64,000 bases of DNA from Yuukianura sp. NJ FZ-2021 (lineage: Eukaryota), in contig CM102286.1 in NCBI GenBank assembly GCA_046563655.1, forward strand, positions 10,974,001 through 11,038,000. The letters run 5' to 3'. The notes under the pieces were generated by a model. The model saw only the letters and a program-made list of their open reading frames with translations. It had not been told where the DNA came from and did no database searches. The first letter of the stretch is position 1. Each line of letters starts with the position of its first letter. Made by a program: the position numbers and the translations under genes. This document shows positions 8,601-53,347 of the stretch, piece after piece.

Positions 8601-11600
8601 TACCGCTGATTCTTCTCATTCCTACGTACGACATTTGAGAACAAACCAAACGCGTGGCACGACTCTGGCGTTGGCTGAATTATATTTTCTGCAAGTGATC
8701 TAACTTCACCTGCACTTCAATACTGTTTCCCAAAGTGGGAAATTTACCGCTGATTCTTCTCATTCCTGCGTACGACATTTGAGAACAAACCAAACGCGTG
8801 GCACGACTCTGGCGTTGACTCAAATAAATTTTAAGCGAGCGATCTAATTGGTCTGAACTTCCCTACTATTTTCCAAAGTGGGAAATTTACCGCTGATTCT
8901 TCTCATTCCTACGTACGACATTTAAGAACAAACCAAACGCGTGGCACGACTCTGGCGTTGGCTGAATTATATTTTCTGCAAGTGATCTAACTTCGCCTGC
9001 ACTTCAATACTGTTTCCCAAAGTGGGAAATTTACCGCTGATTCATCTCATTCGTACGTACGACATTTGAGAACAAACCAAACGCGTGGCACGACTCTGGC
9101 GTTGACTCAAATAAATTTTAAGCGAGCGATCTAACTTTGTCTGTACTTCCCTACTATTTTCCAAAGTGGGAAATTTACCGCTGATTCTTCTCATTCCTAC
9201 GTACGACATTTGAGAACAAACCAAACGCGTGGCACGACTCTGGCGTTGACTCAAATATATTTTAAGCGAGCGATCTAACTTGGTCTGCACTTCCCTACTA
9301 TTTTCCAAAGTGGGAAATTTGCCGCTGATTCTTCTCATTCGTACGTACGACATTTGAGAACAAACCAAACGCGTGGCACGACTCTGGCGTTGACTCAAAT
9401 AAATTTTAAGCGAGCGATCTAACTTGGTCTGCACTTCCCTACTATTTTCCAAAGTGGGAAATTTACCGCTGATTCTTCTCATTCGTACGTACGGCATTTG
9501 AGAACAAACCAAACGCGTGGCACGACTCTGGGGTTGACTCAAATATATTTTAAGCGAGCGATCTAACTTGGTCTGCACTTCCCTACTATTTTCCAAAATG
9601 GGAAATTTACCGCTGATTTTTCTCATTCGTACGTACGACATTTGAGAACAAACCAAACGCGCGGCACGACTCTGGCGTTGACTCAAATATATTTTAAGCG
9701 AGCGATCTAACTTGGTCTGCACTTCCCTACTATTTTCCAAAGTGGGAAATTTACCGCTGATTCTTCTCATTCCTACGTACGACATTTGAGAACAAACCAA
9801 ACGCGTGGCACGACTCTGGCGTTGACTCAAATAAATTTTAAGCGAGCGATCTAACTTGGTCTGCACTTCCCTACTATTTTCAAAAGTGGGAAATTTACCG
9901 CTGATTCTTCTCATTCCTACGTACGACATTTGAGAACAAACCAAACGCGTGGCACGACTCTGGCGTTTGCTGAATTATATTTTCTGCAAGTGATCTAACT
10001 TCACCTGCACTTCAATACTGTTTCCCAAAGTGGGAAATTTACCGCTGATTCTTCTCATTCCTGCGTACGACATTTGAGAACAAACCAAACGCGTGGCACG
10101 ACTCTGGCGTTGACTCAAATATATTTTAAGCGAGCGATCTAACTTGGTCTGCACTTCCCTACTATTTTCCAAAGTGGGAAATTCGCCGCTGATTCTTCTC
10201 ATTCGTACGTACGACATTTGAGAACAAACCAAACGCGCGGCACGACTCTGGCGTTGACTCAAATAAATTTTAAGCGAGCGATCTAACTTGGTCTGCACTT
10301 CCCTACTATTTTCCAAAGTGGGAAATTTACCGCTGATTCTTCTCATTCGTACGTACGACATTTGAGAACAAACCAAACGCGTGGCACGACTCTGGCGTTG
10401 GCTGAATTATATTTTCGGCAAGTGATCTAACTTCGCTTGCACTTCAATACTGTTTCCCAAAGTGGGAAATTTACCGCTGATTCTTCTCATTCCTGCGTAC
10501 GACATTTGAGAACAAACCAAACGCGTGGCACGACTCTGGCGTTGACTCAAATAAATTTTAAGCGAGCGATCTAACTTGGTCTGCACTTCCCTACTATTTT
10601 CCAAAGTGGGAAATTTGCCGCTGATTCTTCTCATTCCTGCGTACGACATTTAAGAACAAACCAAACGCGTGGCACGACTCTGGCTTTGACTCAAATAAAT
10701 TTTAAGCGAGCGATCTAACTTGGTCTGCACTTCCCTACTATTTTCCAAAGTGGGAAATTTACCGCTGATTCTTCTCATTCCTACGTACGACATTTGAGAA
10801 CAAACCAAACGCGTGGCACGACTCTGGCGTTGGCTGAATTATATTTTAAGCGAGCGATCTAACTTGGTCTGCACTTCCCTAGTATTTTCCAAAGTGGGAA
10901 ATTTGCCGCTGATTCTTCTCATTCCTGCGTACGACATTTGAGAACAAACCAAACGCGTGGCACGACTCTGGCGTTGGCTGAATTATATTTTCTGCAAGTG
11001 ATCTAACTTCGCCTGCACTTCAATACTGTTTCCCAAAGTGGGAAATTTACCGCTGATTCTTCTCATTCCTGCGTACGACATTTGAGAACAAACCAAACGC
11101 GTGGCACGACTCTGGCGTTGACTCAAATAAATTTTAAGCGAGTGATCTAACTTGGTCTGAACTTCCATACTATTTTCCAAAGTGGGAAATTTACCGCTGA
11201 TTCTTCTCATTCCTACGTACGACATTTGAGAACAAACCAAACGCGTGGCACGACTCTGGCGTTGGCTGAATTATATTTTCTGCAAGTGATCTAACTTCAC
11301 CTGCACTTCAATACTGTTTCCCAAAGTGGGAAATTTACCGCTGATTCTTCTCATTCCTGCGTACGACATTTGAGAACAAACCAAACGCGTGGCACGACTC
11401 TGGCGTTGACTCAAATAAATTTTAAGCGAGCGATCTAATTGGTCTGAACTTCCCTACTATTTTCCAAAGTGGGAAATTTACCGCTGATTCTTCTCATTCC
11501 TACGTACGACATTTAAGAACAAACCAAACGCGTGGCACGACTCTGGCGTTGGCTGAATTATATTTTCTGCAAGTGATCTAACTTCGCCTGCACTTCAATA

Positions 11601-14284
11601 CTGTTTCCCAAAGTGGGAAATTTACCGCTGATTCATCTCATTCCTGCGTACGACATTTGAGAACAAACCAAACGCGTGGCACGACTCTGGCGTTGACTCA
11701 AATAAATTTTAAGCGAGCGATCTAACTTCGTCTGAACTTCCATACTATTTTCCAAAGTGGGAAATTTACCGCTGATTCTTCTCATTCCTACGTACGACAT
11801 TTGAGAACAAACCAAACGCGTGGCACGACTCTGGCGTTTGCTGAATTATATTTTCTGCAAGTGATCTAACTTCACCTGCACTTCAATACTGTTTCCCAAA
11901 GTGGGAAATTTACCGCTGATTCTTCTCATTCCTGCGTACGACATTTGAGAACAAACCAAACGCGTGGCACGACTCTGGCTTTGACTCAAATAAATTTTAA
12001 GCGAGCGATCTAACTTGGTCTGCACTTCCCTACTATTTTCCAAAGTGGGAAATTTACCGCTGATTCTTCTCATTCCTACGTACGACATTTGAGAACAAAC
12101 CAAACGCGTGGCACGACTCTGGCGTTGGCTGAATTATATTTTCTGCAAGTGATCTAACTTCGCCTGCACTTCAATACTGTTTCCCAAAGTGGGAAATTTA
12201 CCGCTGATTCTTTTCATTCCTGCGTACGACATTTGAGAACAAACCAAACGCGTGGCACGACTCTGGCGTTGACTCAAATAAATTTTAAGTGAGCGATCTA
12301 ACTTGGTCTGCACTTCCCTACTATTTTGCAAAGTGGGAAATTTGCCGCTGATTCTTCTCATTCCTGCGTACGACATTTGAGAACAAACCAAACGCGTGGC
12401 ACGACTCTGGCTTTGACTCAAATAAATTTTAAGCGAGCGATCTAACTTCGTCTGAACTTCCATACTATTTTCCAAAGTGGGAAATTTACCGCTGATTCTT
12501 CTCATTCCTACGTACGACATTTGAGAACAAACCAAACGCGTGGCACGACTCTGGCGTTTGCTGAATTATATTTTCTGCAAGTGATCTAACTTCACCTGCA
12601 CTTCAATACTGTTTCCCAAAGTGGGAAATTTACCGCTGATTCTTCTCATTCCTGCGTACGACATTTGAGAACAAACCAAACGCGTGGCACGACTCTGGCT
12701 TTGACTCAAATAAATTTTAAGCGAGCGATCTAACTTGGTCTGCACTTCCCTACTATTTTCCAAAGTGGGAAATTTACCGCTGATTCTTCTCATTCCTACG
12801 TACGACATTTGAGAACAAACCAAACGCGTGGCACGACTCTGGCGTTGGCTGAATTATATTTTCTGCAAGTGATCTAACTTCGCCTGCACTTCAATACTGT
12901 TTCCCAAAATGGGAAATTTACCGCTGATTCTTCTCATTCCTGCGTACGACATTTGAGAACAAACCAAATGCGTGGCACGACTCTGGCGTTGGCTGAAATA
13001 TATTTTCTGCAAGTGATCGAACTTCACCTGCACTTCAATACTGTTTCCCAAAGTGGGAAATTTACCGCTGATTCTTCTCATTCCTACGTACGACATTTGA
13101 GAACAAACCAAACGCGTGGCACGACTCTGGCGTTGGCTGAATTATATTTTCTGCAAGTGATCTAACTTCGCCTGCACTTCAATACTGTTTCCCAAAATGG
13201 GAAATTTACCGCTGATTCTTCTCATTCCTGCGTACGACATTTGAGAACAAACCAAATGCGTGGCACGACTCTGGCGTTGGCTGAAATATATTTTCTGCAA
13301 GTGATCGAACTTCACCTGCACTTCAATACTGTTTCCCAAGGTGGGAAACTTAAAGCTGATTCTTCTCATTCATACGGGCGAAATTTGAGAACAAACCATC
13401 GGCATCCAAGGCGAAATTTGTGTACTTTTGTGTATTACATTTAAGTTTAACGATTTATGACTAATATGTTACCAGGTTTGCTTGCGTTCATTTAGCTTCA
13501 TTGTACTTACCATACATCCCGACATTTGACAAAGGTAACAGGAACGACTACCGAACAGTGTTCCGAAATCCAAGAGAAAGTGGATAATCCTCAACTCAAC
13601 TATATTACGTGTAAATTGTTTTACTAATTTTTGTAAAATTGCATCAAAAGGGAAATTATATCAAAAGAAAATTGTATCAAATCAAATGGATATTAAAGTT
13701 GTGATAGATGAGAGTTCAAAAAGCGATTTCTAAATCTTCGAAAAACGGACACCCTACTCAACGTATAAATGCCATCATTTCTTTTACATTTGTAAATGCA
13801 CCATGTGTTATTAAGTGCATAAGCTGTGGAGTCGAATATCGCTTGTTCAAAATGAAAATAAAAATTTGTTGCAAAGGCAAATTTGAACCCTGCCAAACAC
13901 TGTTTACCTATTAAGAATTTAAGCCGGAATTTCTAGCCTCTAATTAGGCTTAATTTAACAACGTGATTAAACTAACTATCAGAAAATGAGATCAAAACTT
14001 CGTTGTTAAAAAATATTTTGAGTATAATGCAGACCTAACACAAAATTTTGACGACTTAAGAAACAGCAACGCGAAGCAGCCGCATACTTTGGCGTTGTTA
14101 ATGTACGACTTTGAGTGCAATGTAGAGGTAGAGAAAACACTTGAGCCATACATACATAACCCCCCGAACGGGATTGGCCTCATGCTTCAGTGGAAGGGGT
14201 CCTAAAAAATGTGACAGACAGACAGACAAAGTCGTATCAATAGTCTTCTTCAGCACGTCGTAGACGTGCGTCTCCAGAAGACTA
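2694..14284 (-). mobile_element. Non-autonomous Helentron-like (HINE/DINE-type) element carrying an expanded central tandem repeat
   Basis: GTCTTCTGGAG (2730-2740) is the exact reverse complement of CTCCAGAAGAC (14272-14282). ATTGATACGGCTTT (2751-2764) pairs 13/14 with 14228-14241. Right end: inverted repeat TAGTCTTCT...AGAAGACTA around the hairpin GCACGTC-GTA-GACGTGC, (GACA)4 at 14213-14228, and an adjacent A/T run. Left end: small hairpin CTCAA-GGG-TTGAG at 2712-2724. The left boundary is approximate. Confidence 0.7.
3023..13398. repeat. 144-bp tandem (satellite-like) array, 72 units, two subtypes with higher-order structure
   Basis: GAACAAACC anchor recurs every 144 bp from 3023 to 13389 (10366 bp = 72x144 minus two 1-bp deletions at ~8848 and ~11438). 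Subtype A 'gactcaaataaattttaagcgagcgatc' and subtype B 'ggctgaattatattttctgcaagtgatc'. Confidence 0.98.
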
Positions 14285-27828: not shown

Positions 27829-29718
27829 TCAAAACGCCCGCGGTAGTGAACCAATAATTAATTTTTCTGCAATCCATGAAACAGTCGCACAGGAAAGCCC
27901 GACAATCCACAAGCAAAAAATCCCAAAGAAACTCCGGAGATTGAGTCCTTTGCTGCCAATTTCTACAAAATTTTGAATTTCCTTCAATTTTTTGGCTACT
28001 GTTGAGTTAGGTGTAGTTCTGAGATGTCGCGATCCTTCAATTCTCTTTCTACGTTCATCAGAAGCTATCCAATGCGCATGAAGTCCTGCTGCGCATGATC
28101 TCCCAATAATTGCTGAAAAGTCTGCGCGAATAGGGTAGCCTTTCCGAAAGGCCCACACAATTCCAATGGCATAGTCAGTGTCATCACTACGTCGAAATGC
28201 CATCGGACTTTGAGACGACACGAGTGACATATTTTCAGCAAGACTAAACTCTCCTGCTTCAATGTAGTCTAGGCAAGCAGAGGAATCAGTCATTAGGGCT
28301 AATGTGATACACTCCGCTGAAGAGTTGACAAGATGAATACGTTTAAAAATGGCTTGATGAGTGGGCTTTTTTGAATTTTTGGTGTAATGATACACCCCAC
28401 CGCCATAGAATCGGAAGAACAGCTTATAGTTGGAGAATGCAAGTTCGGGATGTGTCTTCGGAAGGTTCACGACATCTTCCGGATTCGATAAGGATGAAAT
28501 TAGTTTTGAGCGATAGGCGGTTCCTATGAGAAGGGAAAAGGCGGCCCAAAGACAAAGAAGGGCGCGAAACTGTTTTCGCGGCCACTGAATTAGGCTAGTT
28601 GCTTGATCAAGCAGGATTTTCAAAACTCCGGCCAATGCATTTGAGACTTTTTTAAAATTTGCACCACGACGAGCCGAGATGGGATTGCATGGGCTCAAGC
28701 GGTAGTTGTAATGAAAGAGCACATGCGCAATGACCAAACTGCAGTAAATGAAAGTTGTGAACAAGATGGCGCCCCATAAAGTAGGATTGAATGGGCGGTA
28801 GACTGCGCTCCAGGAAAATCCTTTCGGAGAAACTCTAACGTAGAACACACGACGGTAGATATCGTAGGTCGTACTGTAGTCAACGATGACGTCACGCCAA
28901 TCCAGTGCTCCAATCATAACTCCAAATTCGGCTTTCCCGCTGACAATTTCTCCGATTGCTCCATTCCAAGTTCCATTTTTCAATTTCCACCCAGACCCTT
29001 CTTTACTCGAAGAAAGTCGCAACGTAAAATTGAATTGGGTTGCAGAGAAACGCAACATTTCAAAGATACTCCCTTGACCGTGAATCAAATTTTCGCGGTC
29101 GTCGTTCTGAAACCGTAATCTCTCTGGAGTTGGAGTACTTGACACTAAAATTGTTTTACCACTCAAATGACCTCCGCAGAGTCGTCCATTATCCAAGCAA
29201 CTGTGGTTCAAAATTTGAAAATTTCCTTCCGCCCCAACCGTTACCCGCCAACGGTATCGAAAATGGGACCAAAACGTGTCGCTTTTAGCCCCACACATAT
29301 CGTCTCTTGTCAATACTTGAACAAATTGATCTACTTCTTTCCGAATAAGTCGTCTGAGCAATAGCATACTTATAAAATTTTCTGCGTATTCGCAATTGGA
29401 TAGTGGTGATGAAGGTGTCAGCACAATGGAACAGAAACCGCTGTACTTTTTGTTGAAAAAACGATATGAGTTGATGACTTCAGCTTCGGTAAATTCTCGA
29501 GCAAAGTCTGCAATTGAAGTATTTGAACTTGGAAATTCTTTGATCAATATTTTTGTTACTAATTTAAGGTCAATGACCGCAAGGTGAACTGCGTCAAAAT
29601 CTCCATGTGTGGTAACAATCCACGTGTTATTACAAGTGGAGTCGAATTGAAATGGAAAGGCATGTACAAATACGCAGAGTGGAAACAAATTAAGCCAATG
29701 AATGTTTTGCCACTGCAT
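27829..29718 (-). CDS. Divergent ionotropic receptor (IR/iGluR family), intronless
   Basis: Signal-like MQWQNIHWLNLFPLCVFVHA. S1 GWKLKNGTWNGAIGEIVSGKAEFG, RDVIVDYS. M1 YRPFNPTLWGAIL. M3 LWAAFSLLIGTAYRSKLISSL. C-terminal TM LNLRSFFGIFCLW. Confidence 0.9.
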   Translation of the reverse strand: MQWQNIHWLNLFPLCVFVHAFPFQFDSTCNNTWIVTTHGDFDAVHLAVIDLKLVTKILIKEFPSSNTSIADFAREFTEAEVINSYRFFNKKYSGFCSIVLTPSSPLSNCEYAENFISMLLLRRLIRKEVDQFVQVLTRDDMCGAKSDTFWSHFRYRWRVTVGAEGNFQILNHSCLDNGRLCGGHLSGKTILVSSTPTPERLRFQNDDRENLIHGQGSIFEMLRFSATQFNFTLRLSSSKEGSGWKLKNGTWNGAIGEIVSGKAEFGVMIGALDWRDVIVDYSTTYDIYRRVFYVRVSPKGFSWSAVYRPFNPTLWGAILFTTFIYCSLVIAHVLFHYNYRLSPCNPISARRGANFKKVSNALAGVLKILLDQATSLIQWPRKQFRALLCLWAAFSLLIGTAYRSKLISSLSNPEDVVNLPKTHPELAFSNYKLFFRFYGGGVYHYTKNSKKPTHQAIFKRIHLVNSSAECITLALMTDSSACLDYIEAGEFSLAENMSLVSSQSPMAFRRSDDTDYAIGIVWAFRKGYPIRADFSAIIGRSCAAGLHAHWIASDERRKRIEGSRHLRTTPNSTVAKKLKEIQNFVEIGSKGLNLRSFFGIFCLWIVGLSCATVSWIAEKLIIGSLPRAF

Positions 29719-30966
29719 ATCTTGACTTACTAACAAATAAAAGCAAAATTTTTTCTGAAACTTTTGTCTAGTAGCCGGACACTTATCAAAAGAGTTATTA
29801 TAGTTATAGTTGACAGTTGTCAATTCCGATAGTAACAAAATTACACGGAAAACTTTCAATTTTATCGTACACGTAATTGTTGAGTTGTTACAGCACAACC
29901 CAAAAGACACGCTCCGCAAGCCAAAGTGACAGATTGTCAATTGACAACCCCAAACGGAATCGATTATCGCAATGCATTCAATTCACTGGCATAAACAGCT
30001 TTACCATTTTCCAACACTACTCAATTAATCTATTGTACTAATGGGCTCCTGTCATTCCGCAATCGATTATAGTTGCAGACTATATAGTTCGTTTATTCTT
30101 AAGATTTTGAAAAATCAACAACATTTCTTCTCTCATATAAAGTACCGTGGTCGAAGGGACTTCCCCTCGATCCGAAATTCGAACTTCCACGTGGAAACGT
30201 GGAATTCAAAAAAAAAAAATTTATTTTTAAACTTAAAGCTGGACGAAAGTCCTTTCGGTTGATGGGAGTGATCCCATTTTTGCGTGTTGGGTTGCGCAAT
30301 ACTTCCGAGGTCTTGGGAACAAAAAATTTCCAAAGTTGGACTTGATATTTTCAAACAATTCGTGTCTCTTACCTTATGGTGGATACGGTTTTTGAATTTC
30401 ACGCGAACGCTACAATGAAACCCACCATAACGTAATTCTACCATTCATGGCGACATTTTGGTGTTAGACCCGAGGCATCAGGTTCTCTTGAAAAATTTTA
30501 AACTTTGGTATGAACTCATACAATAATTCATGTTTCTCAAATATAGGTTCTTCGATTTAAAAATTTTTAAGATTGAATTATGAAGTTTTGGAAAAATATA
30601 AAATTAAAAAAACGAAGCTGAGACGAACTGAAATTCTAAAACCTCCAAAAAATTCTGAAAACAATGGTGGCAATTTTTGAATCCGTTACAATGGGAATGT
30701 TTAGTTTGAAAGTTTGCAGGCGATCTTTTAAAAAGAAATAGTCGTTATAGCTAGAGTTATTATTACTAGGACGATTGAACGTGCATCGGGCTAAGCCCCA
30801 GCAAGCATACGAATCATACTGTAACTCATCTATATGGAATATTAAATGAATCATAAAAAATTTAGGGATTTTTTAATTAGGGATTAAATTAGGGATTTAA
30901 AAAAAAAACTTTATTTAGAAAAAACTCTTTTGGCTGGAGTTTTGTATACGAAAACTCTACTACCAT

Positions 30967-34288: not shown

Positions 34289-36891
34289 TTAGTAAACTGA
34301 AACTCCAACATTGTTGCAAACTTCCTCTGATTCTATTGGTGGAAATTGGTAGACTTGTTTTGCAATTTCTTCATCTTCGATAAAGGTCATGCCCAGTCCA
34401 GCTTCCAAATGCTGATTGAATAGAACAAAACATTGGTTGAAATGTAATTTTTTTTTAAATTCAGTCAAGCATACCCAATTAATGTGACAGTGGAAGAACC
34501 AGGCGCCAGGGTTGTCTGTAGTGTACGTAAATACTGCCCATGAATTTCCCAGGGTAAAAGTTGTATCTCGTCTCACTCCATCTGGCGTCAACTTTGATTC
34601 GTCTCTGCTAGAAATGAATGCTCCTGCTTCGGCAGCTCCAGTTCCAAGCACCCAAAAAGAATGGCCTTCAAATTATGAAAAATTATTCTTGTACTTTTCA
34701 AACTTTGAAAAGGAAATTCTAACAAATTCCTTCTGTAGCAGTATCTTACCGTGGAGGTGCCAGGGATGCGGCAGCGGATGATAATTGTTAATGACAACGC
34801 GAATCACCTAAAAATTAAAATTCAAATGTAGATAAAAGTGGCATGAACTATTTACAGAAATTTACTTCTCGTTGCTTTGGGGTGCGGATGGGTCTTGCCG
34901 AGCTTGGAATTTGTTGGTTGTTGATTAGTTGAAAAAGAACTGGGCTTTTGTTCACACTGGCCGGAACAAACGGTTGACCATTCATGCACATGCGCGAAGG
35001 ACTTCCAGCGATTGGACAGTCTGTTACATTGATGGTAATGAGTCGGTCATATTTCGTAGGCGCTTTTCCTTCTACTCCAAATTGCAATGGTGGGCATTGC
35101 ATGTCGTCGAGCAAAGTAGCTGTAGAAGCACTGACAGGAGTAGATGTTGGAAGTCGAGTCTTTTTGACCAACTGCGCATGCTCTTCATCCAGTTTCTTTT
35201 GTAAATTAGTATCAATTTGTGGCGGTTTTTTTGGAAAGAATTTGTCCAAATCCTCTATTGTGTCGGGAGTGATGCCACCAGCTTGGATGATATCGTCCCA
35301 CGGAACGTCTTGGAAATCGGGTCGACCTTGAGCCACTCCGGAAGGAGGGTCATCACGCCCAGGACGTACTGCCCCAGTTGTTACCGACGAAGATGATGAT
35401 GCACTGGCTGCTCCCGATGCCGAAGCAGTGGCTCGACCTTGACGTTTACCGCCACCCTTTCCTTTTGCGTTACCTTTGTTGTCACGTATAGGGTTAGCAT
35501 AGTTGAGTTACACTTTATCATTTTTATTGTTACTTTTAGTGGTTACCTTTTGGTTTAGTTGTAGGTTTCGGTGTAGGGTTTGCAGGGTTTGGCTGGGGAT
35601 TGTCGTTTGACGCAGTTGAATTGCTTGTGTTCGACGTGTACCGCAAAACAGCTCGACCCAAAAGTCCAGCTGATCCTACCGGTATCCCAGAAATTCGGAT
35701 CCAATACTCGTTGCGGGGTTGATCCATCGTAACCAGGATTGAGTACCTCTGTGCTGCTAGAATCGGAATGACATCTACCGCTGGACTTTTGAAAGTGTCA
35801 ACTCCATCCGTTTCAATGACAACCATCTTGTGCCCATCTATGCTAAAGTTGTAGGTTCTTGCGCCAGAGGAATTCAAAATTCGAAACCGGTAGCGTTTTC
35901 CACGCGTGACTTCAACTACAGCTGGACCTTGCATTGTACTGTTACAAGTTTGACCTTTCTCAACCGTTGAACAGTTGAACGTACCGCGAGCGTTGATGAG
36001 TGACGAGTTTGTGTCAGGAAAAATTCCTTGCTTTAGGTACACTTCGCTGACATCCTTAGCTGGACGGTGAATCCAATCGTTGATGGAGATTAGCCGTTCA
36101 TCGTCGTACGAATTTTGCCAACATTCCGCTGGCGAGTTTTTGATAATCAGGAAACCCCAAGCTCCGTCGACGTACTGGTAGGAATGATGAGAATGGTACC
36201 TGAAACCATGGTAAAAAAAAAACGGCGCTAGTTTTGAATTTTAGAATTGTAGTTTTGAAGTTGTTTTTACCAGTATGTCCCAGCTTGGAACACTTGAAAC
36301 TTGTAAATCATAGATGTGTGTTTTATAACAGGGCATTGCGTGATGGACTGTGGACCGTCATAGAATGGTGACAAGTTTTGTTGAATCCCGTGCCAGTGGA
36401 TAGACGTTGGTTCATCTTTGTCTGGAATGTCATTCGTCACACGTACCAGCATGGTTTTACCTACTGTGCATCGCAGGACAGGCCCAGGGAATTGTCCATT
36501 GAACCCAATTATTCGTTTCTGGACCCCATCGGGTGAACCATTGATGTATTGCATACGTATATCATAAATGCAGAGGTCATCTGACTCTGAAATGTCATAA
36601 AAACGCGCCACTGTATCAAAATTCGGTTTCTAATATTTGATGTTTCAACCTACCGAAACCGATAGTGTTGTTGTCGCTAGCATTGACGATACTGACACTG
36701 CCAGTGGTGGTAACGTTCTTGCTTGGAGCAGATAGACTTGGTACCTTGATGTTGCTCAAGCTGTGGTTCAGCTTGGCCCAGCTTTTCCAAAATTCAGTGT
36801 TGCGTGCTTGCCCGGAAGTGGAAGACTGAAAAAATTTAGCAGTTGTCGTCGAAAACAAGAGGAAAACCAGAACAGTTGAACGGAACACCAT
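34289..36891 (-). CDS. Secreted three-domain multicopper oxidase (laccase-like)
   Basis: Signal peptide plus all four Cu-binding motifs across introns: SIHWHG, GTYW|YHSH, HPWHLHG|H, DNPGAWFFHCHINW|HLEAGL. Low-complexity linker between domains 2 and 3. Confidence 0.93.
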
Positions 36892-37248
36892 TTTCGAGGA
36901 AACAAAAAATCTAACTGATCGAATTTTCACAAGTTTTGACCAAAAAATGAAGCTTTTAGCTGCAGCATATTTAAAATTCAATTATTTGGAGAACCAGCAG
37001 CTGTATATGGTTTTTGCTGCATCCTTTTTGACGCTATCACGCTTATGTACATTTCCCAACAGGATCATCATACTTAAGACAAACTAATTACCGTATTACA
37101 TGTCATAGAATCAGAATAACGAGATCATCAACCAGCCAAATTAGTTTTCAAGGTGAAATGTATTTTTCGTAAATAGGAAAGTTATATTATAATATTCACA
37201 TATTGAAATATTATAATGGGTTTGTTGAGAAGGGCACGTTTGTTACGT

Positions 37249-41985: not shown

Positions 41986-44900
41986 TTACATACATTGCGG
42001 AACTGCCGGAGCTTGGCCTTCTGACTCTGAAGCTAAATCATCCTTAACAATATGCTTGTTAGTGGTCGTCGCAACCATTTCAGCATTCATGAGGTTCTCC
42101 AAGTGAGCTGTAAGTTTTCTAACTGTCTGGTTTTCCTGTATAGCGCCAACAGTCACTTGGCTTTTTTCGAAAATGCTTTGAAAACGATTGCGTAGTTCAA
42201 TGGTCATTAGAGAGTCGACTCCAAACGCTGAAAAGAGTTTATCTGGATCCAATTGCTCGGCATCATCAACCCGAAGCGTCGCCTTCAACAACATGCAAAC
42301 AAATTCTTCAATTTTGTTTCGTCTTTCCTGTGCATCGGTTGTTTCTTTGAATTTCGTTCGGGTGAATTTTTCCCCAACATTTGTAGCCGTCACCGAATTC
42401 AAATTGTTAGAATTCAGTTCATCCAAATAATGGCCCAGGTTCACGACCTTTTTTAATATAGCCCAGTCGAAGACATCTACCACGGTACACCGAAGTTTAT
42501 GTTCCTCCATGACCATTTGAAGAGCAGCCAACCCTTGACTTGGAGAGAATGTAATGACTCCGTTCCGATTTCCTTTATAAACTTTTGCATCCGCTGCGCC
42601 TCCAACCTAAAACAAAAATGTTTATGTAATGTTTGTAATATTTTCATTTTTTTCGTTTCTTGTAAATTCATTTCAAAATCCAACGAGTGAACCAGCCCCC
42701 TGCGTTCAGCCCCCTTAGCAACCAACGCCAGCTTTTGTTTGTGACGTCACTCGTTGAAAAATACCGGAATTCGGGGAATAATGATGGCATCCTATAGAAA
42801 CCCATATATTGTTTGATGTTTAGATACGCGCCTCGGATAATAAGCTGACGATTACGGTATTTTTCAACGAGTGACGTCATAAAAAATGCCGTGGTAACCT
42901 AACAAACTTTCTGTTCGCACTACCTGTAGTTATTCTATTTACCTTGGGAGTGAACTAGAAACGCCAGTCAATGCAGAAATACTATTTATAGTAATACCTT
43001 CTGCCACGCGCCGAAGTTGATGCTGCATGCCGGGAGACCCATTGAGTGTCGATAGTGTGCAAATGAATCTAAGAATCCACAAGCGGCTGTATGGTTGCTG
43101 TTTCCTAGACTGCCAAAATTTGATGCTATACTTGAAAACATAACGAAGAATTCAAGACCACAGTCGAGAGTCAACTTGTGCAAATTGATGCACCCTTGAA
43201 TTTTTGGTTGGAAAACCATTTCGAATTTTTCCCACGACAAATTTTGTATGATCCCGGATGCGTACACTCCTGCTGCGTGCATAATTCCGCGAAGCGGCGG
43301 CAAATTTAAACTCTTTAAAGATTCGAAAAGTGCTTCTGCTTCTTTGTAGATACCAATATTTGTTTGAACTGCCAAAGTTCGACATCCATTTTTGTTCATA
43401 CCCTTCAAAGCTTCTTGGGCTTCAACTGAAGGTTTCCTGCGTCCAACAAGCACTAGGTTGGTGGCCCCCAATTTTATCATCCACTTGGCCACTTCCATAC
43501 CGATCCCACCCAACCCACCGGTGATAATGTACGTACTCTGTGAATTGAAAAGACGTTTTTCAAAATGGACGCGGCCTTCCGGGGAAATTTTGGTTTCTGG
43601 AATGGTGATCACAACTTTCCCAATGTGTTTTGCTCCTTGAAAAAAAGAGAAAGCTTGCTGAATTTTGTCTATTGAAAATGTTTGGTGTGGAAGACTGGTG
43701 TAAATGCCATTTTTCAATTCGGTTTCAATTTTTCTCATAAGATGGCAGAATTTCTCGTTGATCTGCAACATGCCATGAGATACGTCTACTAGAAAATATT
43801 TTACATCTGGACGTATTGTCTTCACTTCGTCTTCGGTCCAGGTATTTACTTTCCCAATTTCAACAAATCGCCCATTTTGAGCACAAGCTCTGAGAGACGC
43901 TTCTTTGAAGCCAGAACCAGTGAGCGAGTTAAGGACAACATTCACTCCAGCTCCATATGTGTCTTTCATTATTTCGTCCCCAAAATCCGTAGTTCTGGAG
44001 TGGTAGACATGTTGAATTCCAATTGATCTTAGGTACGCTCGTTTCCTTTTGCTGCCTGCCGTGGCAAATATTTCCGCGCCAAGACGTTTGGCCATTTGAA
44101 TCGCCGCGAGGCCAACCCCTCCTGTGGCTACATGTATCAGAACTCGCTCCCTTTCATCTAGATTTGCAAGTTCTTCGAGTGCATAAAAACATGTGAGAAA
44201 TGCAACTGGAATTGTAGCTGCCGAGGTAAATGTCATTTCGGGCGGTTTTCGTACCAAACACCGAGAGGAGACAGTGAGGTGAGAAGCCAATCCATTCCCA
44301 GGCACAAAACCAAAGACAGCGTCACCGAGGTTAAATTTGGTGCAAGTGGGACCAACGGCTGAAACGATTCCAGCTATTTCTAACCCTGGTTCTTGAAGAT
44401 CAGTTATCGAATCCACAAATCCTTCTGGTTGAAGGATGAGAAACAAATCTCTGAAGTTTAGTCCCGTTGCTCGTACAGCTACTTCAACTTCGTCTCCCAC
44501 CGGATCCATTCTCGAAGCAGGAGAAATTTCCAAATCATTCAGACTTTGGCTAACTGGCTTCGTTACTTGAAAGCAAGTCGAATTTGGAAACGCAAGTGCA
44601 CGCGTTGAATTTTTATCAAGTATTAATCTTTGGTGGAAAATTGTGTCTTGCCGTATTGCTCTGAACACTTCATCGCTTTCCCTGGACCAGATCATCGCAA
44701 AAGTCTCTTCTACTTCTCGTTCAAAATCGACTTCATCCTGTGCAAGGTCAATGACCTTGAGTTTAAAATCTCTGTGTTCGTTTGCAAAAGATCTAATGAA
44801 GGCTGCAGCCGTTCCAGCAACTGGGTTTCCTGGTCCAGTGTCTCCAACGTAATAAACTCCACGCGTCACCAAAACTAATTTTGATTTTGTAGTTTCGTTT

Positions 44901-47900
44901 TCCTGGGCTGAAGAAAGTTTTTGGCAAAGTTCGAAAAATTCTCTGCATTTTTGTTGACTTCCGTCAGAATGTTCATGAGTCTCAGTCCATAGAAAAAGCA
45001 CTCCTTCTAACATTTCATACATGTCAATTCCTGTATCGTAGGAAACGACTTTACGTCCATAATATGACAACTTCGAAGTCAGGTTTGATTTCAAAAAAGA
45101 ACAATCTCCATGTACAATCCACGTTGATTTATATGGAGCTGAGAGGACCATAGTAGGCAGAGCTGAAGCCAATTTATGTCCAGCTACGACGCCAAAGTGT
45201 TCATCAAATGCTGAGAATGTTCTTGTTCCACCAAATCCAGCTCTCTCGAATGCAATCTTCCATTTTTCTGTAGTCAAAAGTGGTGAACCAGTTCTACCAT
45301 CCGTTGACTTCCACCATTCTTTCAGGAATCCGAACGATAAATTGACGTACGTCAAATCCTTAAACATTTCACCCAATACAATAATGCCTCCTGGTCGCAG
45401 AACAATGTTTAAATTTTTCAGAGTTTGTACAATATCTGCTGTTGCATGAATTACGTTGGCAGCAATGATAATGTCAAATTCGTCTGGAGGAAAGCCTTGA
45501 CTCAGAGGATCTTCCTCAATGTTGAACAATGCAAAGGTTACGCCCTTTTTGAATTTCTTTTCCGCTTCATTCAGAAAAGAAGGTGAAATGTCTGTGAAAG
45601 TGTACTGGCATGAGACCTTGAGCTGCGTGAGTCCTTCAAAAATCAAACTGCAACAAATTCCTGATCCTGCGCCAACCTCCAAAATTTTAAAGGCTCCATT
45701 TCCGGTTGACGAGTTGCTAATGCAGTCCAGAACCAATGAGGTTGGCAGGATACTAATTTCTTTGAATCCTTCTCCTAATAATTTTTTTCAAATTCAAATT
45801 AATTCAATTCAAATTAATTAATCAAATCAATTCAAATTCAGTTTTACAAATGAATTCAAATGTAACATTGTTTTCGAGATAGAACAGGTTGATTTCTTTT
45901 AGACTTTGATTTTATAATAAAAAAGAGAAAAAAAAAGGAGTTTCAATTACCTTCAGAATAAAATCTCAAAGCACCAATTTCAGACGAGTTTTCTGTAAAG
46001 AGGTATGAAGTAGGAGCAATTTTCCCTTGAAAAACGCTTGGAAGATGACGGCCACATCGTTTTGCAAATTGAGAAATCACACTTTCCTTTTTGTTTGTCA
46101 GTTCGAAATGATGTCCGAATCCATCCGAAATTTCTTTCTCTAATTCTTCCGAGGTGGGAAGTTTTTGTAACACTTCATAAGTTCCATCTTTAGTTTTTTG
46201 CAAATAGGAAATCTTAGCTAAAATTTCCATGACCTTCCCAGACTTCACAATTCCCAATCCGGGAGCCAACTTTGCCCAATCACAAATATTTAGGTTTTCT
46301 CCAACGTCGGGCCAAGGCCATTCAGATTCAGTAATTCCCTTAATGAGGAACATCGTAAATAATTTGTCGATGATTTGAAAGCTACGCAATGTTGCGACCT
46401 CTTTATCGGAAATAGATTTTAGCGTGTGTTTCATGAATCCGGATAGTTTTATCTCAATTAACTTTGACTCGACTTGACTTCGTGTAATCCTGTTTGTTGG
46501 ACGCCAAACTTCTTCCAAAATTGTCGGTAATAATTCAGTTTCTTGACATAATGTTTGCAAGAATCGGAATGGTGTCGTGCTAATAAATTTGACTCCTTCC
46601 ATTGTTGTCAAAATGTTTCCTAAATCATTTGCCAACGTTATAGTACGTGCTCCTTCTGAAATTGTAAGGTACGCAAAAACTTTTCGTGTAAATGTCCCCG
46701 AGTAGAAACTGAATTTTTTGATTGCAACTGGCAACTGCAGTCTGCTGGCTTTATCAGTTTCTTTGTCAGTCAACATTGCATGAATAACAGAAGTTTGGAG
46801 CATTGCGTCGAGAACGATTGGATGACAAATGTAAGAATTAGAATCTTCTGCAGGAATTTCAATTTCCGCTAAAACAGCATCCTGTGCAACCCAAGCTCGA
46901 GAAATTGATCGAAATCTCTTTCCAAACTGGTATCCGACCTCCACCAGTTTATCATACGTTGTGTGCATTGACTCCAAACAGTCTAATGTTTGCTGTATGG
47001 TTTGTAAGTCAATAGACGTGATGCCTGTGAGACGACTTGGAGTAATTGTCGCTATTGCGTGTCGTTTCCACTGCTGTGGAGTGTCACGAGATTGCTCGTG
47101 GATTGTCACTTCGAACTTGAGTCTTTCTTTGTCAATTGATTGCACAATAGTTTGAATTTGACAGGATCTGTTCAGTTCTAGGGCAGCCTCGATTGTGAAG
47201 TTTTCAATGCAAAATGGAACTCGAACCTTTCCGCCCTGCAAAACGTGATACCCGGCCGCCATTATGGTTTCAAGGAAAGCCGCTCCAGGAAAAACAATTC
47301 TCTCCGCAATACGATGATCACCGAGAAATTTAAGATTTCTGGTTGATAGAACTTGAGTGAAGATGTGTGCTGGAAATGGAGTCGGTAGTGGCGCTCCAAG
47401 TGTTGGGTGTAGAGACATGGGATGCTGTGAGCCAACGTCAACATCTTCTCGTTGAAACCAAAATTTTTGACGTTGGAATTGATACGTAGGAAGAGTCAGT
47501 TTACTAGCGCCAGAAAACCAATTCGTCCAGGAAATCTCAGCACCAGCTACAAACATCTTGGCCAGTGAATTCAAAATAGAAGCCAAGTCATCTTCGCTTC
47601 TGCGTAGTGAAGGACAAAATGCGTCCTCTTCCGAACCCTGCAGGTTTGACATAGTCAAGGCTAACAAAGTCGGTTGGGTACCGATTTCGACAAAGACTTT
47701 TGGGGAAGGGACAAGTCTTTCTAGTTGGATTACAGCGTCACGAAATCTAACCCTGTCTCGCAAATGACGCGCCCAGTATTTGGAAGAAAGTTCACCCAAT
47801 TCTAATTTTCGCCCAAATGTACTGGAGATGTAGCAACAATTGAAGTCGTGTGTTTTAACTTCCGCCGCGATTTGTTCGAATTCTATTGATATTGGATCCA

Positions 47901-50900
47901 TAAGTTGAGAATGAAAAGCGTGAGAAGTTTTCAAAAAGTTTGCTTGGAGTCCGTTGGATTTACAAAAGTTAGCAAACTTTTCCACGTTATCTGAGGCGCC
48001 AGACACCACGACTTGCTCGTCGGAATTCTCGGCTGCAACATCAATCCAAGAATCTGCTGAGGATTGAATGAATTCTTCAATCAACTTGCGGACATCTTCT
48101 GGCGAATTTTTTAAAGCCAACATTTTCCCGGCTTCGAGTGAATGGACGAGTTTACTTCTGCTAGCAACTAGTTTCATCCCATCTTCAAGTGACAGCACGC
48201 CAGCGCAAACTGCCGCACAGAATTCACCCGCGCTGTGACCTAGGACAACGTCAGGGTGAATTCCAAAAGAGTTCCACAGTTGAACCAGTGCAAACTGAAC
48301 TGAAAAAATGGCCGGTTGGCAGTAGATGGTTTTGTCCAACAAGGCAGCATCTCCCCACAGAACTTCCTTCAGTGAACACATCAAATGATTCTGGAAAAGT
48401 ATTTCACATTTGTCCAGCGCCGTTCGAAAAACTGGCGAATCATTGTAAATGCTTTTCGCCATTCCGAAGTACTGTGACCCTTGACCTGTGAATAGAAAAA
48501 CCACTTTCGGTTTCTGCTGCACCGCCTTTCCTTTGATGAAACTTCTCTGTTTTAATTTTGACACGAGTTGCTCCGTATTATTGACTACAAGTGCAATCCG
48601 GTTGGCCATGCTTGCCCTTCCAGTATTTAGAGTATATGCGATGTCATACAATGTAAGTTCTGGATTCTGCTCAAAATGGGAAATGTGTTTTTCACAAAGA
48701 GATCCCAAGGCTTCTTCGGATTTGGCAGAAACCTGTATCATTTGTAACAAGTTTGAATTGGGTTCAAGATTTTTAGGTGTGCGCTTCGGTGGCTCTTGAA
48801 CGATAATATGAACGTTGGCTCCACTCATGCCGCTCGAACTAGTGGCTGCAATCCGCCTTTCTTGTTTCCATTCTGTCACTTCCAATGGAATAATTCCCGG
48901 AATTTTGTCGAGATGGATTTTGGGATTTAAATTTTTAAAGTGGAGGTGCGGTGGTATCTGTTTGTGTTTGAGACAAAGCAGAATTTTTATAAGTCCAGCA
49001 ATTCCTGAGCATCCTTCAGTGTGTCCAATGTTGGTTTTCACAGAACTGACAAGGAGCGGTTCTGCCCGATTTTCGGAATAAACTTGTTCAATTGCTCCCA
49101 TTTCCGCTGGATCTGAAATAATGTGTATAAAACTTATTCAAAAGCTCGTTAAAGTTACAGCCTTCGAGGTATTTTTGTTTCCGTTAACAAGGTTAATTAA
49201 GAAGCAGTGCCATTTACTTGGCTTCGTTAGACTACATTTGGGTTTCCTTTGGTACTAATAGAGATTTAAATATGCTACATCGTATATGCTCGGTTATTCC
49301 GCCTAACCTAATAAATAGGTACAATCTCTTGCAATTAAGAAAAAATTAAACTCCATTGTTGTAAAGATTTCCATTGTTATGGTTATGGGGAAGGGTATGG
49401 GGGCAAGTGACTATAGGGTCATGGGGGAAGGATATAGGGGAGAGGGTGGGAGGAGGGGGGTTCGGAAGCGGGGGTGGATGAGATGACGTCATTATGTCAG
49501 AAACGTTTTACGCAGATGCAATTGCTGATGAGGGCAGCCATTTTCAAAACCCGAGCATTCCCATGGAGGTACATGAAAACGTACATGGAGAATTAGGAAA
49601 GTACATAATTTCGCTACCTCCTGCTGGCGTTCCTGTTCCATGTGGCTCGATGAGAGTAACATCGCGAGGCTGAATGCAAGCATCAGTCAACGCCTCCCGG
49701 ATTACCCTTTTCATGGCATAAAGATTTGCAGTTCCGTAGCTTGATGGCCCGTTGTTATTTAACCCAATTCCGCGAATTACGCCGAGAATATTATGACCTT
49801 CGCGAATGGCGTCAGGCAGGGGTCGCAGCACTACTGATGCAATTCCTTCAGCCCGAGCATAACCATCGGCTCTAGAACGGAAAAGTTACTTTAAGAAGTA
49901 TGATTTTATAATTTTAGCTGTTATGATTCCTCACCTCGCGTCGAACGATTTGCACTTGAAATCTTTTGCAAAGGTTGGCGCGTCCGAAATTGTTCCGCCA
50001 CCAATTGGATTAAGGCTGCGAAGTACTAGGTTTACTCCAGCGGCAATTGCAATTTTGGAGCTTCCATTGCGCAAGTTTTGGCAAGCAAGGTACAAAGCTG
50101 TTCCGCTACTCGAACAACCGGTTCTATAAAATAAAAAATATACGTGTTAAATATTTCGTTTTTAAGAATTCACAGTACGAGCAAAACGGGATAATTTTTG
50201 TATTTAGAGGTTCTCACTCTGTACAGTAGTTTGGTCCATGAAGTCCAAGCAAATTAGAAATTCGTCCAGAGGTTGTGCTGAAAGTATTTCCCAGGTAGAC
50301 TCGAATGTAGTCGTCTGGATCTAGTCCATACTCTGGAAACCAACTCTTGTACTCAGATTGCCAAATACCTAAATATACTCCCGTGTCACCTCCACGCAAG
50401 TCGTCTGGATTGATGGCAGAGTTTTCGAGACTCTCCCAAATCACTTCCAGAAGAAGACGTTGCTGAGGATCCAAAAACGGTGCCTCACGAGCACTAATTC
50501 CAAAAAATTTAGCATCAAATTCATCTATTGGGCATTTCAAAAATCCCGCCTGAAAATTTTTTGTATCGTCGTTTAGGTGGCGTGATCTATTGGATGGGAA
50601 CGGTCCAATGGGATTTCGACCACTGATGAGCAACTCCCAAAGTTCATCGGCATCATTTGCTCCAGGAAATCTGCAACTCATGCCCACCACTGCAATTGCA
50701 TTTTTCAAATCCTCCCGGTGGTCCTCTCGTTCAGTACCATTTACCGTGACGTGTCCATTTTTATTTAGTTGATACCTTTCTGCGGATTTCAAAAGATACG
50801 TTTTTGTACCGTCGTCCTGTTTAAAAAAAAGTTTGAAATGTGTTATTCAACTTATTAGTTACTTTGTTAGATAGTATATTTTGGCAATGAATTTCGTTTG

Positions 50901-53347
50901 AAGCTGGAGTAAAAAGTGTTACTATATTTTACTTGTATTTGCTGAACTTGTGGCATAATTTCGGTTTCAAATGTAGCCATCCAATTTTGTTTCATTTCTT
51001 CACAATAAAATATCTTGCACGAAGACGGTGCAGTAGCAGCATTGTTATCTTGCGAGGCATAAGAGTCTTCATTGCTGGACAAACCTTGCATGTCTCTATC
51101 AAATTTATTTCAAATAAAAATTTTAAAATAGTTGTTACTAAATTGAAGCTGTGCTTCTATAAATGTTTCCATCTTTACGAGTTTTTTCCATCCACTTACA
51201 TCAGCTTTTCTGAGGCAGACTCAAGGATTTGATGTCTTGAATTGCGAAGGACAGAGGAATATTTAGAGCTCAAAATTTCCATCGCATGCCCTATCACAAA
51301 GAGGGAACCTTAAATTTACTTCCAGTTATTAAGTACTACTTAAATTTCGCTACTTTGCTAACGTTATGGTTTGAGGTTGTCTGTCTGGCCAGCCATTTGT
51401 CCGTCCGTCGACGGCAATTATCTCGGAAACGCTCAACAATTCCGGGAACTTTTTTCATTAATGAACATCGGGTCGCGCATAGGGTTCGATGCTGAATACA
51501 TTCCGGCGTGCGAACTCTTTCCGGGTCAAAGGTCAGGGTCAACAATTTTTCCCCCCAGTAACATGGAAAGTGACCCATACAAAAGTTGTTCATGCATTGA
51601 GATGAACTCTTGTGTTCAGCGTGTGACCACAAGTGACCACCTCCGTGTCAAACGTCAGTAATTTTATCGTTCATAAACATAATGCAGCGCCATCTCTTGC
51701 TTCGCTACTTTAGACTCCGGTTACGACCGGATTTATTAAATAGCGAAGGCTATTTGATAATAAGATTCGTGGGCGTCCGTTTCTCCTTGAAAACATCAGA
51801 ACAATTATCCCTGGAACCATTATTGGAAAAATTTCAACTGCGTCACCATGTCATGACCCGGACCTATTACGGAATATCACCAGATTGATGACTTTTTACT
51901 AGGTCAAAGGTTAAGGTCATGCACCTTTCCAATATAAAACCGGGAAAGGCAACCCCCCGCTCCCACGAAAAGTGTGGCAACCCACACTCCCCCATGGGGA
52001 TGCCGATTAGAGGCGGGAACCCACCACGCGCTCTAAGAGTTCCCGCCGTGCACTACTACCTCCGCAGTATACTACCTGGGTTAAAGGTCAGTGGGTCCTT
52101 CGCTACTTACGTACCCTCGGTTTATTACAACCAGAACTTGTTTTCTTCTATTTTTGAACGTAGGCTTACCTCGCAGATTTTTTTGGCTTAGTTTCACCAG
52201 TTGATCAAATTCCTCTAGACTCGGTTTGAACACGACAACCTTCGATGAAATTTTTATACCGCAGTCAGCAATGTCTTCAACAACAGCCGAGAACGACGGA
52301 TGCAAAAACAGTTCATCCGAATTCTTGTGCATCTGTAAGACAGCAATGTCCATACCAAATCATTAAAGATAACTACCAAATGAAAAATTCTCTGCTTAAA
52401 ATTAATTCTGGTTTGTTGATTCAAGTATGGTTAGTTAGGCATTGCTGAAAATAAAGGTTCGCTTGAAATCATAGTTGTCACATCCCGTAAAGACTGGAGG
52501 ACTTACGTAGGTCATAGGGTGAACGTAGACACACTTAATCCAATTGCGCAAACTCCAAAGCCAAAACACGCCATGCTCTTTGTTCCCCACTTCGCTTGAC
52601 TCAAACCGCAAAACCGTATCAAATTCACGATTTAAGAGTTTTCTGAAATTCAAATAAAAATCCAATTTTGAAGGCGACGTTTGGCTGAAATCAAACTGAA
52701 CGGAGCTCTTTTGTGGTAAGATCAGTACGTAACATATATGCCGAGTTTGACTCCAAATCTAAACCGAATGGAATACTTACAGCGTCACCGACCTCATTTT
52801 CTATATTATCGTAGTTAAGTTTTATGTTCTTTAAGTATAGGTAGTAAAAAAAAAAAGAAAAAGTTGGCAACAATATTCCTTTCGCTTTAAACAGCTTTAA
52901 AAGTTCTGACAACGTAATTCTATCAAGTCATAATTATAGTATTCACTATTAGAGCAGTTTTTTGTTGTTGCAAGCGGTGTTTATAAGTTTAATTATCAGC
53001 ATAAAGTCAAGGAAAGAAATTAACTTGACCTATTAGTTCTGTTGTTAAGCATGCGTAACTTTCAAGCATTTTCATTTTTGCTACTCTTCCTCACAGACAA
53101 AAAAACATGGTTTTACCTTATCTCATTTGAAACGTCTTCCGAGATTACAATGACCAAGGGTTTAGTTGTCACCGAATTTCGGATTGATCTAGCGAGCACC
53201 AACGCTCCCCAAGCTTCTTCCTCATTGCTCGCCAACGTCACCCAACACTCGTCTTCTACATGCCAAATAAATACCGATAAAAAATGACAATCTATAAAAA
53301 TGCATAAAGTGTATGCTTTATAGAATTTTTTGGTAACTACCCTTCAT
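41986..53347 (-). CDS. Glycogenin-like (GT8) domain fused to a reducing type I polyketide synthase: GT8-KS-AT-DH-MT-ER-KR-ACP, ~2,770 aa
   Basis: Exons 53347-53341, 53255-53117, 52642-52507, 52332-52170, 51290(or 51308)-51200, 51095-50933, 50816-50218, 50123-49935, 49871-49618, 49112-45951, 45774-42998, 42606-41986 join in one frame. KS TGCSSS/EPHGTGT/NIGHTE; AT GHSAG/HAFH; DH DHRIAERIVFPG/LDAMLQ; MT LEVGAGSG; ER GGVGLAA; KR TGGLGGIG; ACP GVDSL; no TE. PKS identity is near certain; the fusion is inferred. Confidence 0.85.
42691..42946 (-). mobile_element. ~256-bp interspersed non-autonomous repeat, copy 1 (PKS last intron)
   Basis: Near-identical inverted copy at 62575-62830. Internal 25-bp inverted repeat TGACGTCACTCGTTGAAAAATACCG. 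Confidence 0.85.

Follow-up and report, generated by a model that had tools for sequence, protein, structure and literature searches.

Intron positions and sequence relationships support a chimera of an animal glycogenin and a bacterial-type polyketide synthase in Yuukianura sp.

A large gene of Yuukianura sp. NJ FZ-2021 very probably originated as a chimera, in which a native glycogenin was joined to an acquired polyketide synthase (PKS). It lies within a stretch of 64,000 nucleotides, here called the window (assembly GCA_046563655.1, contig CM102286.1, positions 10,974,001 to 11,038,000). The initial annotation had suggested a chimera of this type, and intron columns, sequence comparisons, and the KS-AT tree all support it. 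The intron record shows a likely route by which a bacterial gene became expressed and kept in an animal. The foreign synthase follows six leading exons that come from the duplicate of a housekeeping gene, and the join is at an intron belonging to that gene. The explanation as a whole, which covers function as well as origin, is considered probable.

The gene is located on the minus strand (53347-41986) and has 12 coding exons, which form an open frame of 2766 amino acids with a single terminal stop. All eleven introns are of the GT-AG type, and introns 1 to 6 are in phases 1, 2, 0, 1, 2, and 0. The ATG is at 53347 (-) in exon 1 (53341..53347, -, 7 nt), which is predicted from genomic DNA and is followed by a phase-1 GT-AG intron of 85 nt. 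The short first exon and the phase series noticed at the outset are thus both confirmed in the gene model, exon 1 as a prediction. Exon 2 (53117..53255, -, 139 nt) encodes strand 1 and helices of glycogenin, and the phase-2 intron after it is at the site of human c.143. In exon 3 (52507..52642, -, 136 nt) the DxD motif is replaced by H-P-M, and a phase-0 intron follows. Exon 4 (52170..52332, -, 163 nt) ends at a phase-1 intron, the shortened exon 5 (51200..51290, -, 91 nt) at a phase-2 intron, and exon 6 (50933..51095, -, 163 nt), which encodes the last GT8 helix, at the phase-0 junction intron.

The join between the two halves is found in database proteins as well as in the gene model. P0068 is encoded without introns on a contig of 1488 nt and combines a glycogenin-like start with a KS domain. 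Given only this protein, a spliced aligner placed the same five introns between exons 2 and 7, the one at the junction with the KS exon among them. P0091 likewise spans the glycogenin/PKS join without introns. Exon 6 has no stop ahead of its GT donor, and a phase-0 in-frame join was modelled in all 14 full copies of the fusion in this genome. It is therefore extremely unlikely that the locus consists of two adjacent genes that are not spliced together, one for a PKS and one resembling a truncated glycogenin, even though the splicing of the window copy is predicted from genomic DNA and a stand-alone relative of 221 amino acids exists (P0132, which may be a fragment).

The PKS half encodes a single reducing module. 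Exon 7 (50218..50816, -) contains a linker and the N-terminal part of the KS (PF00109, E=2.5e-41). The KS continues in exon 8 (49935..50123, -) with the catalytic Cys and in exon 9 (49618..49871, -) with the first catalytic His, both assigned from the model and motifs. Exon 10 (45951..49112, -, 3162 nt) includes the end of the KS, the KS-AT linker, the AT, and the DH (PF02801, PF22621, PF00698, PF21089, PF14765). Exon 11 (42998..45774, -, 2777 nt) encodes the C-methyltransferase, ER, and KR (PF08242, PF00107, PF08659), and exon 12 (41986..42606, -) the ACP (PF00550, E=8.8e-10) and the stop; thioesterase and reductase domains are absent. The domain order is KS-AT-DH-MT-ER-KR-ACP in one chain, with no release domain. 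The Cys-His-His residues of the KS and the AT, DH, MT, and ACP motifs are intact, and the AT motif is one that we take to be of the malonyl type. The KR has His at the position of the catalytic Tyr, which leaves the extent of reduction uncertain. Of the six other loci compared at this motif, three (L043, L045, and L048) have the same His, one has Leu, and two have Tyr. This His may be a variant specific to the family and not a sign of decay. The PKS half had been described as intron-poor. It has 5 introns in about 2530 codons versus 6 in the 233 codons of the glycogenin half, and the long exons 10 and 11 fit the description, but three of the five introns fall within the KS domain.

The positions of the introns agree with those of animal glycogenin genes. 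Introns were compared on one alignment of 14 fusions, the host glycogenin (L030, C2:6135500-6145400), the rotifer-like loci L124 and L125, and the controls L123, L129, and L001. Four of the five internal introns of the window gene share a column with introns of the host or rotifer-like genes, and the fifth matches in 11 of the 14 copies, so that mapping onto animal glycogenins supports the idea from which this analysis began. The phase-2 intron at column 56 is found in all 14 fusions, L124, and L125; it equals the human c.143 site and is missing in the host glycogenin. The phase-0 intron at column 116, just past the DxD motif, is present in every fusion and in the host gene. At column 179 the phase-1 intron is exact in nine fusions and in both rotifer-like loci, within two columns in three fusions, and absent from two; the host gene has it at column 175. 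A phase-2 intron lies at columns 226-227 in 11 of the fusions and at column 225 in L030 and L124, and one copy has none. The window gene and its sister L019 have their phase-2 intron at column 214, a position due to the shortening of exon 5 from 112 nt, its length in seven paralogs, to 91 nt. The phase-0 junction to the PKS is at column 297 in all 14 fusions, and this is also the donor of intron 6 in the host gene, which points to exon capture. Two of the eight isoform pairs compared (P0157/P0159 and P0180/P0185, insect by tree position) diverge at the residue in this column.

These coincidences are not expected by chance. For a six-site reference on 690 positions, the probability of three exact coincidences among five is about 4e-6 and that of four about 8e-9; the figures are optimistic, since about eight sites make up the pooled reference and a uniform model underestimates hits at proto-splice sites. 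No intron column is shared by the controls, which comprise three genes only: L123 has one intron (column 30), L129 has none, and L001 has one elsewhere. The metagenome scan returned mostly transcripts, and 6 of 80 loci, representing four distinct genes, were treated as genomic. The non-animal genomic glycogenins compared amount to two distinct genes, with no identified Dikarya gene among them.

The host glycogenin has introns that differ from those of the fusions. No intron is present at column 56, an additional phase-2 intron occurs close to the start, and intron 4 is displaced upstream by four codons relative to the rotifer-like loci, differences that can be described as loss plus gain or as sliding. 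The fusions retain two sites that are missing or moved in the host gene, so the duplication predates these changes. The first coding exon of the host gene is 13 nt, and the use of a 7-nt exon as a diagnostic marker was accordingly rejected. A 7-nt first-exon candidate (ATG..G|GT) is found in 10 of the 14 full copies. The first intron is 3, 4, and 5 codons ahead of the first strand in the host, human, and window genes, respectively, so it shares phase only.

The likeness to vertebrate GYG1 is partial. We assume that introns 3-6 of human GYG1 are at c.318, c.481, c.608, and c.828, coordinates that were not found in the literature searched. Human intron 6 would then presumably lie about 11 codons downstream of column 297, so the junction intron fits the host gene better than the human gene. 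The location of human c.646 in exon 6, as given in the part of the source available, fits these assumed positions. In the available text of PMC5735306, the variant c.143+3G>C causes skipping of exon 2 and p.Asp3Glufs*4, which places intron 2 after c.143 and implies that exon 1 has 7 coding nucleotides. The resemblance suggested by the initial annotation thus holds for the 7-nt exon and the c.143 intron, but the exon match is largely incidental given the 13 nt of the host gene.

Sequence comparisons also indicate that the glycogenin half is of animal origin. Residues 1-237 of P0068 match human glycogenin-1 in the PDB with E=1.7e-29 and match 1247 representatives at E<=0.001. After another fusion-type protein the top match is an insect glycogenin, and the glycogenin of Folsomia candida is sixth. 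A strand-1 Trp together with the Cys of a KCV motif is present in 16 of 16 fusion rows and in five of six named arthropods, and is missing from every named row of non-animals, vertebrates, or rotifers; rotifers have Phe at the Trp position. An HMM of the fusions scores 65 bits on an exon of the host glycogenin and 13 bits on L001. Together with the intron columns, these results support an animal source.

The GT8 trees neither prove nor refute this origin, although a tree of the domain had been put forward as a check. In a tree with 50 of 252 rows, the fusions group together as a single clade (100/98), the stem of this clade is very long (1.63), and their placement among animals is unstarred (91/63). 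The free tree puts them beside three unnamed non-hexapod rows, and FastTree with distant GT8 outgroups draws them to the base with no support. In AU tests, grouping the fusions with hexapods gives p=0.298 (5.7 log units worse) and grouping them with the fungal side gives p=0.124 (19.9 log units worse). A clade of the fusions with the host and Folsomia glycogenins alone is rejected (p=0.0098), and the host gene itself groups with Folsomia candida glycogenin at 99/97. On the basis of these sequences the duplication of glycogenin looks old, and the fusion does not look like a recent copy of the springtail gene, because sisterhood with the present-day springtail glycogenin is rejected.

The long stem and the intron differences raise the question of which animal supplied the glycogenin half. 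Its source, or that of the whole chimera, could be a different intron-rich animal or a very old non-hexapod duplicate. The introns at columns 56 and 179, which the fusions share with the rotifer-like loci but which the host gene lacks, agree with this, as do the rejected clade with the host and Folsomia genes and the non-hexapod neighbors in the free tree. On the other hand, the junction and column-116 introns match the host exactly, while L124, which groups with a Rotaria protein, has no column-116 intron and has its sixth-site donor one codon later. The strand-1 Trp is arthropod-like, and sisterhood with hexapods is allowed. The simpler account is that the canonical copy lost or shifted introns once an old duplication had taken place, and a foreign animal source is unlikely.

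A fungal or protist source for the whole gene, GT8 domain included, is very unlikely. Such a source would require the intron agreement to reflect ancient opisthokont introns or parallel gains. The fungal side is allowed by the AU test, and the order KS-AT-DH-MT-ER-KR-ACP is also that of fungal highly reducing PKSs. The genome also carries a GT8 gene, L001, that from its motifs we take to be of fungal type. However, the constrained fungal tree is far worse than the hexapod one, the HMM strongly favors the host glycogenin, none of the three non-animal-type controls shares an intron column, and bacterial PKSs exceed LovB by more than 200 bits. L001 (C3:3423074-3426901), a one-intron gene with an intact DxD motif, is a candidate for a separate horizontal acquisition. 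It was rejected as the source of the GT8 domain of the fusion on its HMM score and its lack of shared intron columns.

The PKS half appears to be of bacterial type, as supported by the KS-AT trees and AU test. The KS domains of this genome's PKSs form one clade among bacterial modular KS domains, apart from the host FAS-like genes. In a KS-AT tree of 30 rows, they are nested in bacteria behind three starred branches, and a clade with host FAS is rejected (p-AU 0.0006). The bacterial rows of both trees were picked by similarity, fungal and animal PKSs entered only the rankings of PDB scores, and the frameshifted L019 was left out. A KS tree had been proposed as the check on acquisition, and its nesting among bacterial modular KS domains agrees with the proposal, but on the KS alone a clade with FAS stays allowed (p=0.17). 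Within the sampling described, the KS-AT tree supports a bacterial-type origin. The AT scores 226 bits against the best bacterial locus and 90 bits against host FAS, with identities of 35-38% to the top bacterial loci versus 22-28% to host FAS-like genes. Against PDB sequences, the KS-AT-DH region scores 381 bits with CurL, 167 with LovB, 133 with EcPKS1, and 123 with FAS, and the ER-KR region scores 312 bits with MAS and 255 with CurK. The sister row in the KS-AT tree is a Moraxellaceae genome while cyanobacterial loci score highest, so no donor is named.

The introns of the PKS genes have a more complex distribution. No intron interrupts the AT region of the window gene or of seven of eight other PKS loci, while all four FAS-like loci share one intron there. 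In the KS, intron sets vary among PKS subfamilies, and L027 has none. Three sites coincide with those of FAS-like genes: codon 581, phase 1, of the window gene with L038; 367, phase 1, of L028 with L036-L038; and 324, phase 1, of L035 with L037. Across L010-L038, KS introns cluster at close but non-identical sites (codons 427-435, 496-502, and 580-581), some on or beside FAS-like sites. We tentatively read the coincidences with FAS-like genes as parallel gain at G|G-type sites. They could instead reflect descent of the PKS half from an old animal FAS/PKS lineage, which would make the chimera an internal shuffle. The KS-only AU test and the lack of metazoan PKSs in the trees leave room for this, but it is quite unlikely given the KS-AT test and the AT identities. 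The differences in KS introns among subfamilies and their absence from L027 are as expected of late gains. The available text of PMC5490193 and of PMC10764717 also treats Folsomia PKSs as horizontally acquired.

The glycogenin-derived domain appears to fold as in glycogenin and to have lost its catalytic residues. In the predicted structure of P0068, residues 1-240 are confident and have a GT-A fold, with TM scores of 0.75-0.84 on target length versus glycogenin structures; the result is biased by an alignment made of glycogenins. Asp102 and Asp104 form the metal-binding DxD motif of glycogenin, Tyr195 is the self-glucosylated residue, Gln164 and His212 belong to the catalytic site, and the C-terminal tail binds glycogen synthase. 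The equivalent of D104 is missing in 16 of 16 fusion rows, and that of D102 is retained in nine. The Y15, Q164, and Y195 equivalents are missing in all 16 rows, and that of His212 is present in one, in a stretch (Tyr195/Gln164/His212) where the alignment is weak. According to the text available of PMC13737462, His at the D102 site of human glycogenin is reported in patients, and the window gene has the same substitution. Most fusion copies have a deletion of 7-13 residues before strand 3, and a new, near-invariant Trp is found in 15 of 16 rows. The canonical tail, which follows intron 6 in the host and other animal proteins, is replaced by the PKS. The dN/dS of the domain is 0.11-0.35 in eight of eight pairs, showing purifying selection. 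Since catalytic residues and tail are lost, yet dN/dS is low and the new Trp is conserved, we read the GT8 domain as a folded pseudo-enzyme that would no longer glucosylate and that may be kept at the N-terminus for scaffolding or binding.

The fusion has expanded in this genome and is present in at least 16 copies. The KS exon has at least 36 matches in the genome, with 40 candidates scored. Of 21 PKS loci modelled, 13 have a full set of glycogenin-like exons, 2 are degenerate, and 6 have none. The 14 full copies are these 13 loci and the window gene; neither the counts nor the GT8 trees include the degenerate loci L029 and L031, and small extra exons (17-39 nt) called in L011-L013 were excluded as probable aligner artefacts. 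No GT8 remnant was detected by HMM scan in the six loci without GT8 exons or in L035, so some family members do without the GT8 domain. Five PKS loci (L010 and L023-L026) are nested within the fusion clade although the 8 kb upstream of each shows no detectable GT8 exons, which were likely lost secondarily.

Profile searches do not recognize the domain. Pfam gave no match for single glycogenin-like exons of the window gene and no GT8 match on the continuous P0068, and a search of the host genome with the Pfam GT8 profile detected neither the fusions nor the host glycogenin. Since Pfam misses the GT8-derived domain, springtail PKS gene models may be truncated, which matters for anyone expressing these proteins. 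The pseudo-glycogenin domain is small and is predicted to fold.

The chimeric gene family is real, and transferred animal PKSs and pseudo-enzyme domains are the kinds already known. Folsomia candida has 30 type I PKS clusters, largely flagged as transferred in the available text of PMC5490193, and the Folsomia PKS OXA62418.1 is cited as horizontally acquired in that of PMC10764717. By these published descriptions, Folsomia candida likewise has a large bacterial-like type I PKS family in a springtail-type genome. The word "glycogenin" is absent from the main text of the former paper and "glycosyl" from that of the latter. The available texts of PMC10531068, PMC4809457, and PMC5630876 contain nothing on a glycogenin-PKS fusion, and no description of one was found in the literature searched, which covered few subscription journals. 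Protein searches for named full-length springtail fusions returned bacterial PKSs instead, the ESM Atlas gave only leads under 0.9, and a phage search gave no match.

Three other known systems resemble parts of the fusion. Glycogenin (GYG1/GYG2; CAZy GT8; PDB 3t7m, 7q0b, 4ueg, 1ll2) is alike in sequence, predicted GT-A fold, and intron columns, but the fusion has a DxD motif broken in 16 of 16 rows, has lost the Tyr195, Gln164, and Tyr15 sites, has the new Trp, and has a PKS in place of the tail. Bacterial cis-AT modules with a C-methyltransferase (CurL/CurJ/CurK and mycocerosic acid synthase) are the best PDB matches and share the KS-AT linker families PF22621 and PF22336. In contrast to them, the fusion is a eukaryotic gene that is spliced, encodes a single module behind a GT8-derived N-terminus, has a KR Tyr->His change, and has no release domain. 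Animal FAS and AFPK (EcPKS1/2) have a similar iterative, single-module animal layout. The fusion scores far lower with these (123-133 bits), its KS-AT clade with host FAS is rejected, its MT motif is intact, and it has no TE.

The fusion probably formed by capture of glycogenin exons. An animal glycogenin gene would have been duplicated, most likely early in the arthropod line leading to the host, and the duplicate would have lost its last exons, which encode the glycogen-synthase-binding tail. By way of the ancestral phase-0 intron 6, exon 6 would then have become joined to a bacterial-type reducing PKS with a single module, whose foreign frame would thereby have acquired a host promoter, a start codon, and splicing. 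The PKS part may later have gained a few introns, after which the chimera would have multiplied. We infer this order of events, as well as the donor type, the product, and the role of the domain, from the comparisons above.

The function of the protein is predicted from its domains. As a best guess, the PKS would act iteratively with malonyl-CoA and SAM to build a methyl-branched chain on the ACP, and a separate enzyme would release it in trans. The GT8 pseudo-enzyme would occupy the place where bacterial modules carry a docking domain. Given a chimeric origin, there is about an even chance that the domain serves as a scaffold. A role in ligand binding or sensing is possible with a lower probability, and it is doubtful that the domain is an altered enzyme and equally doubtful that it is a passenger. 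A broader and tentative suggestion is that the GT8-derived domain represents a novel type of PKS domain with its own task. Its remodelled pocket, with family-specific tryptophans, a deleted lid, and a lost metal site, might bind a sugar nucleotide, glycogen, or the chain, and might anchor synthesis or gate it by carbohydrate stores. Exon capture might then have been the domesticating step that allowed spread across springtails.

Other features of the locus and genome were also observed. Intron 4 (51291..52169, -, 879 nt) contains a dispersed repeat with at least 49 matches, with 40 of 276 candidates scored in the genome, mostly at 70-79% identity. This repeat is probably a non-autonomous mobile element, and it is missing from intron 4 (66 nt) of L019. 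The latter (C4:11060000-11069900), the nearest paralog at about 35 kb, has a frameshift near the beginning of the KS, carries Leu where the KR should have Tyr, and is possibly a decaying tandem copy. L002-L009 belong to GT8 families other than the fusion or glycogenin; among them L003-L008 (C4:1.287-1.295 Mb and others) form a tandem array with dispersed copies of another GT8 family that has N-terminal hydrophobic segments. Downstream of the PKS, the window contains a multicopper oxidase gene (34289-36981, -), an open reading frame of 717 amino acids resembling ionotropic receptors (27829-29982, -), and a long repetitive coding region (3784-13000, -).
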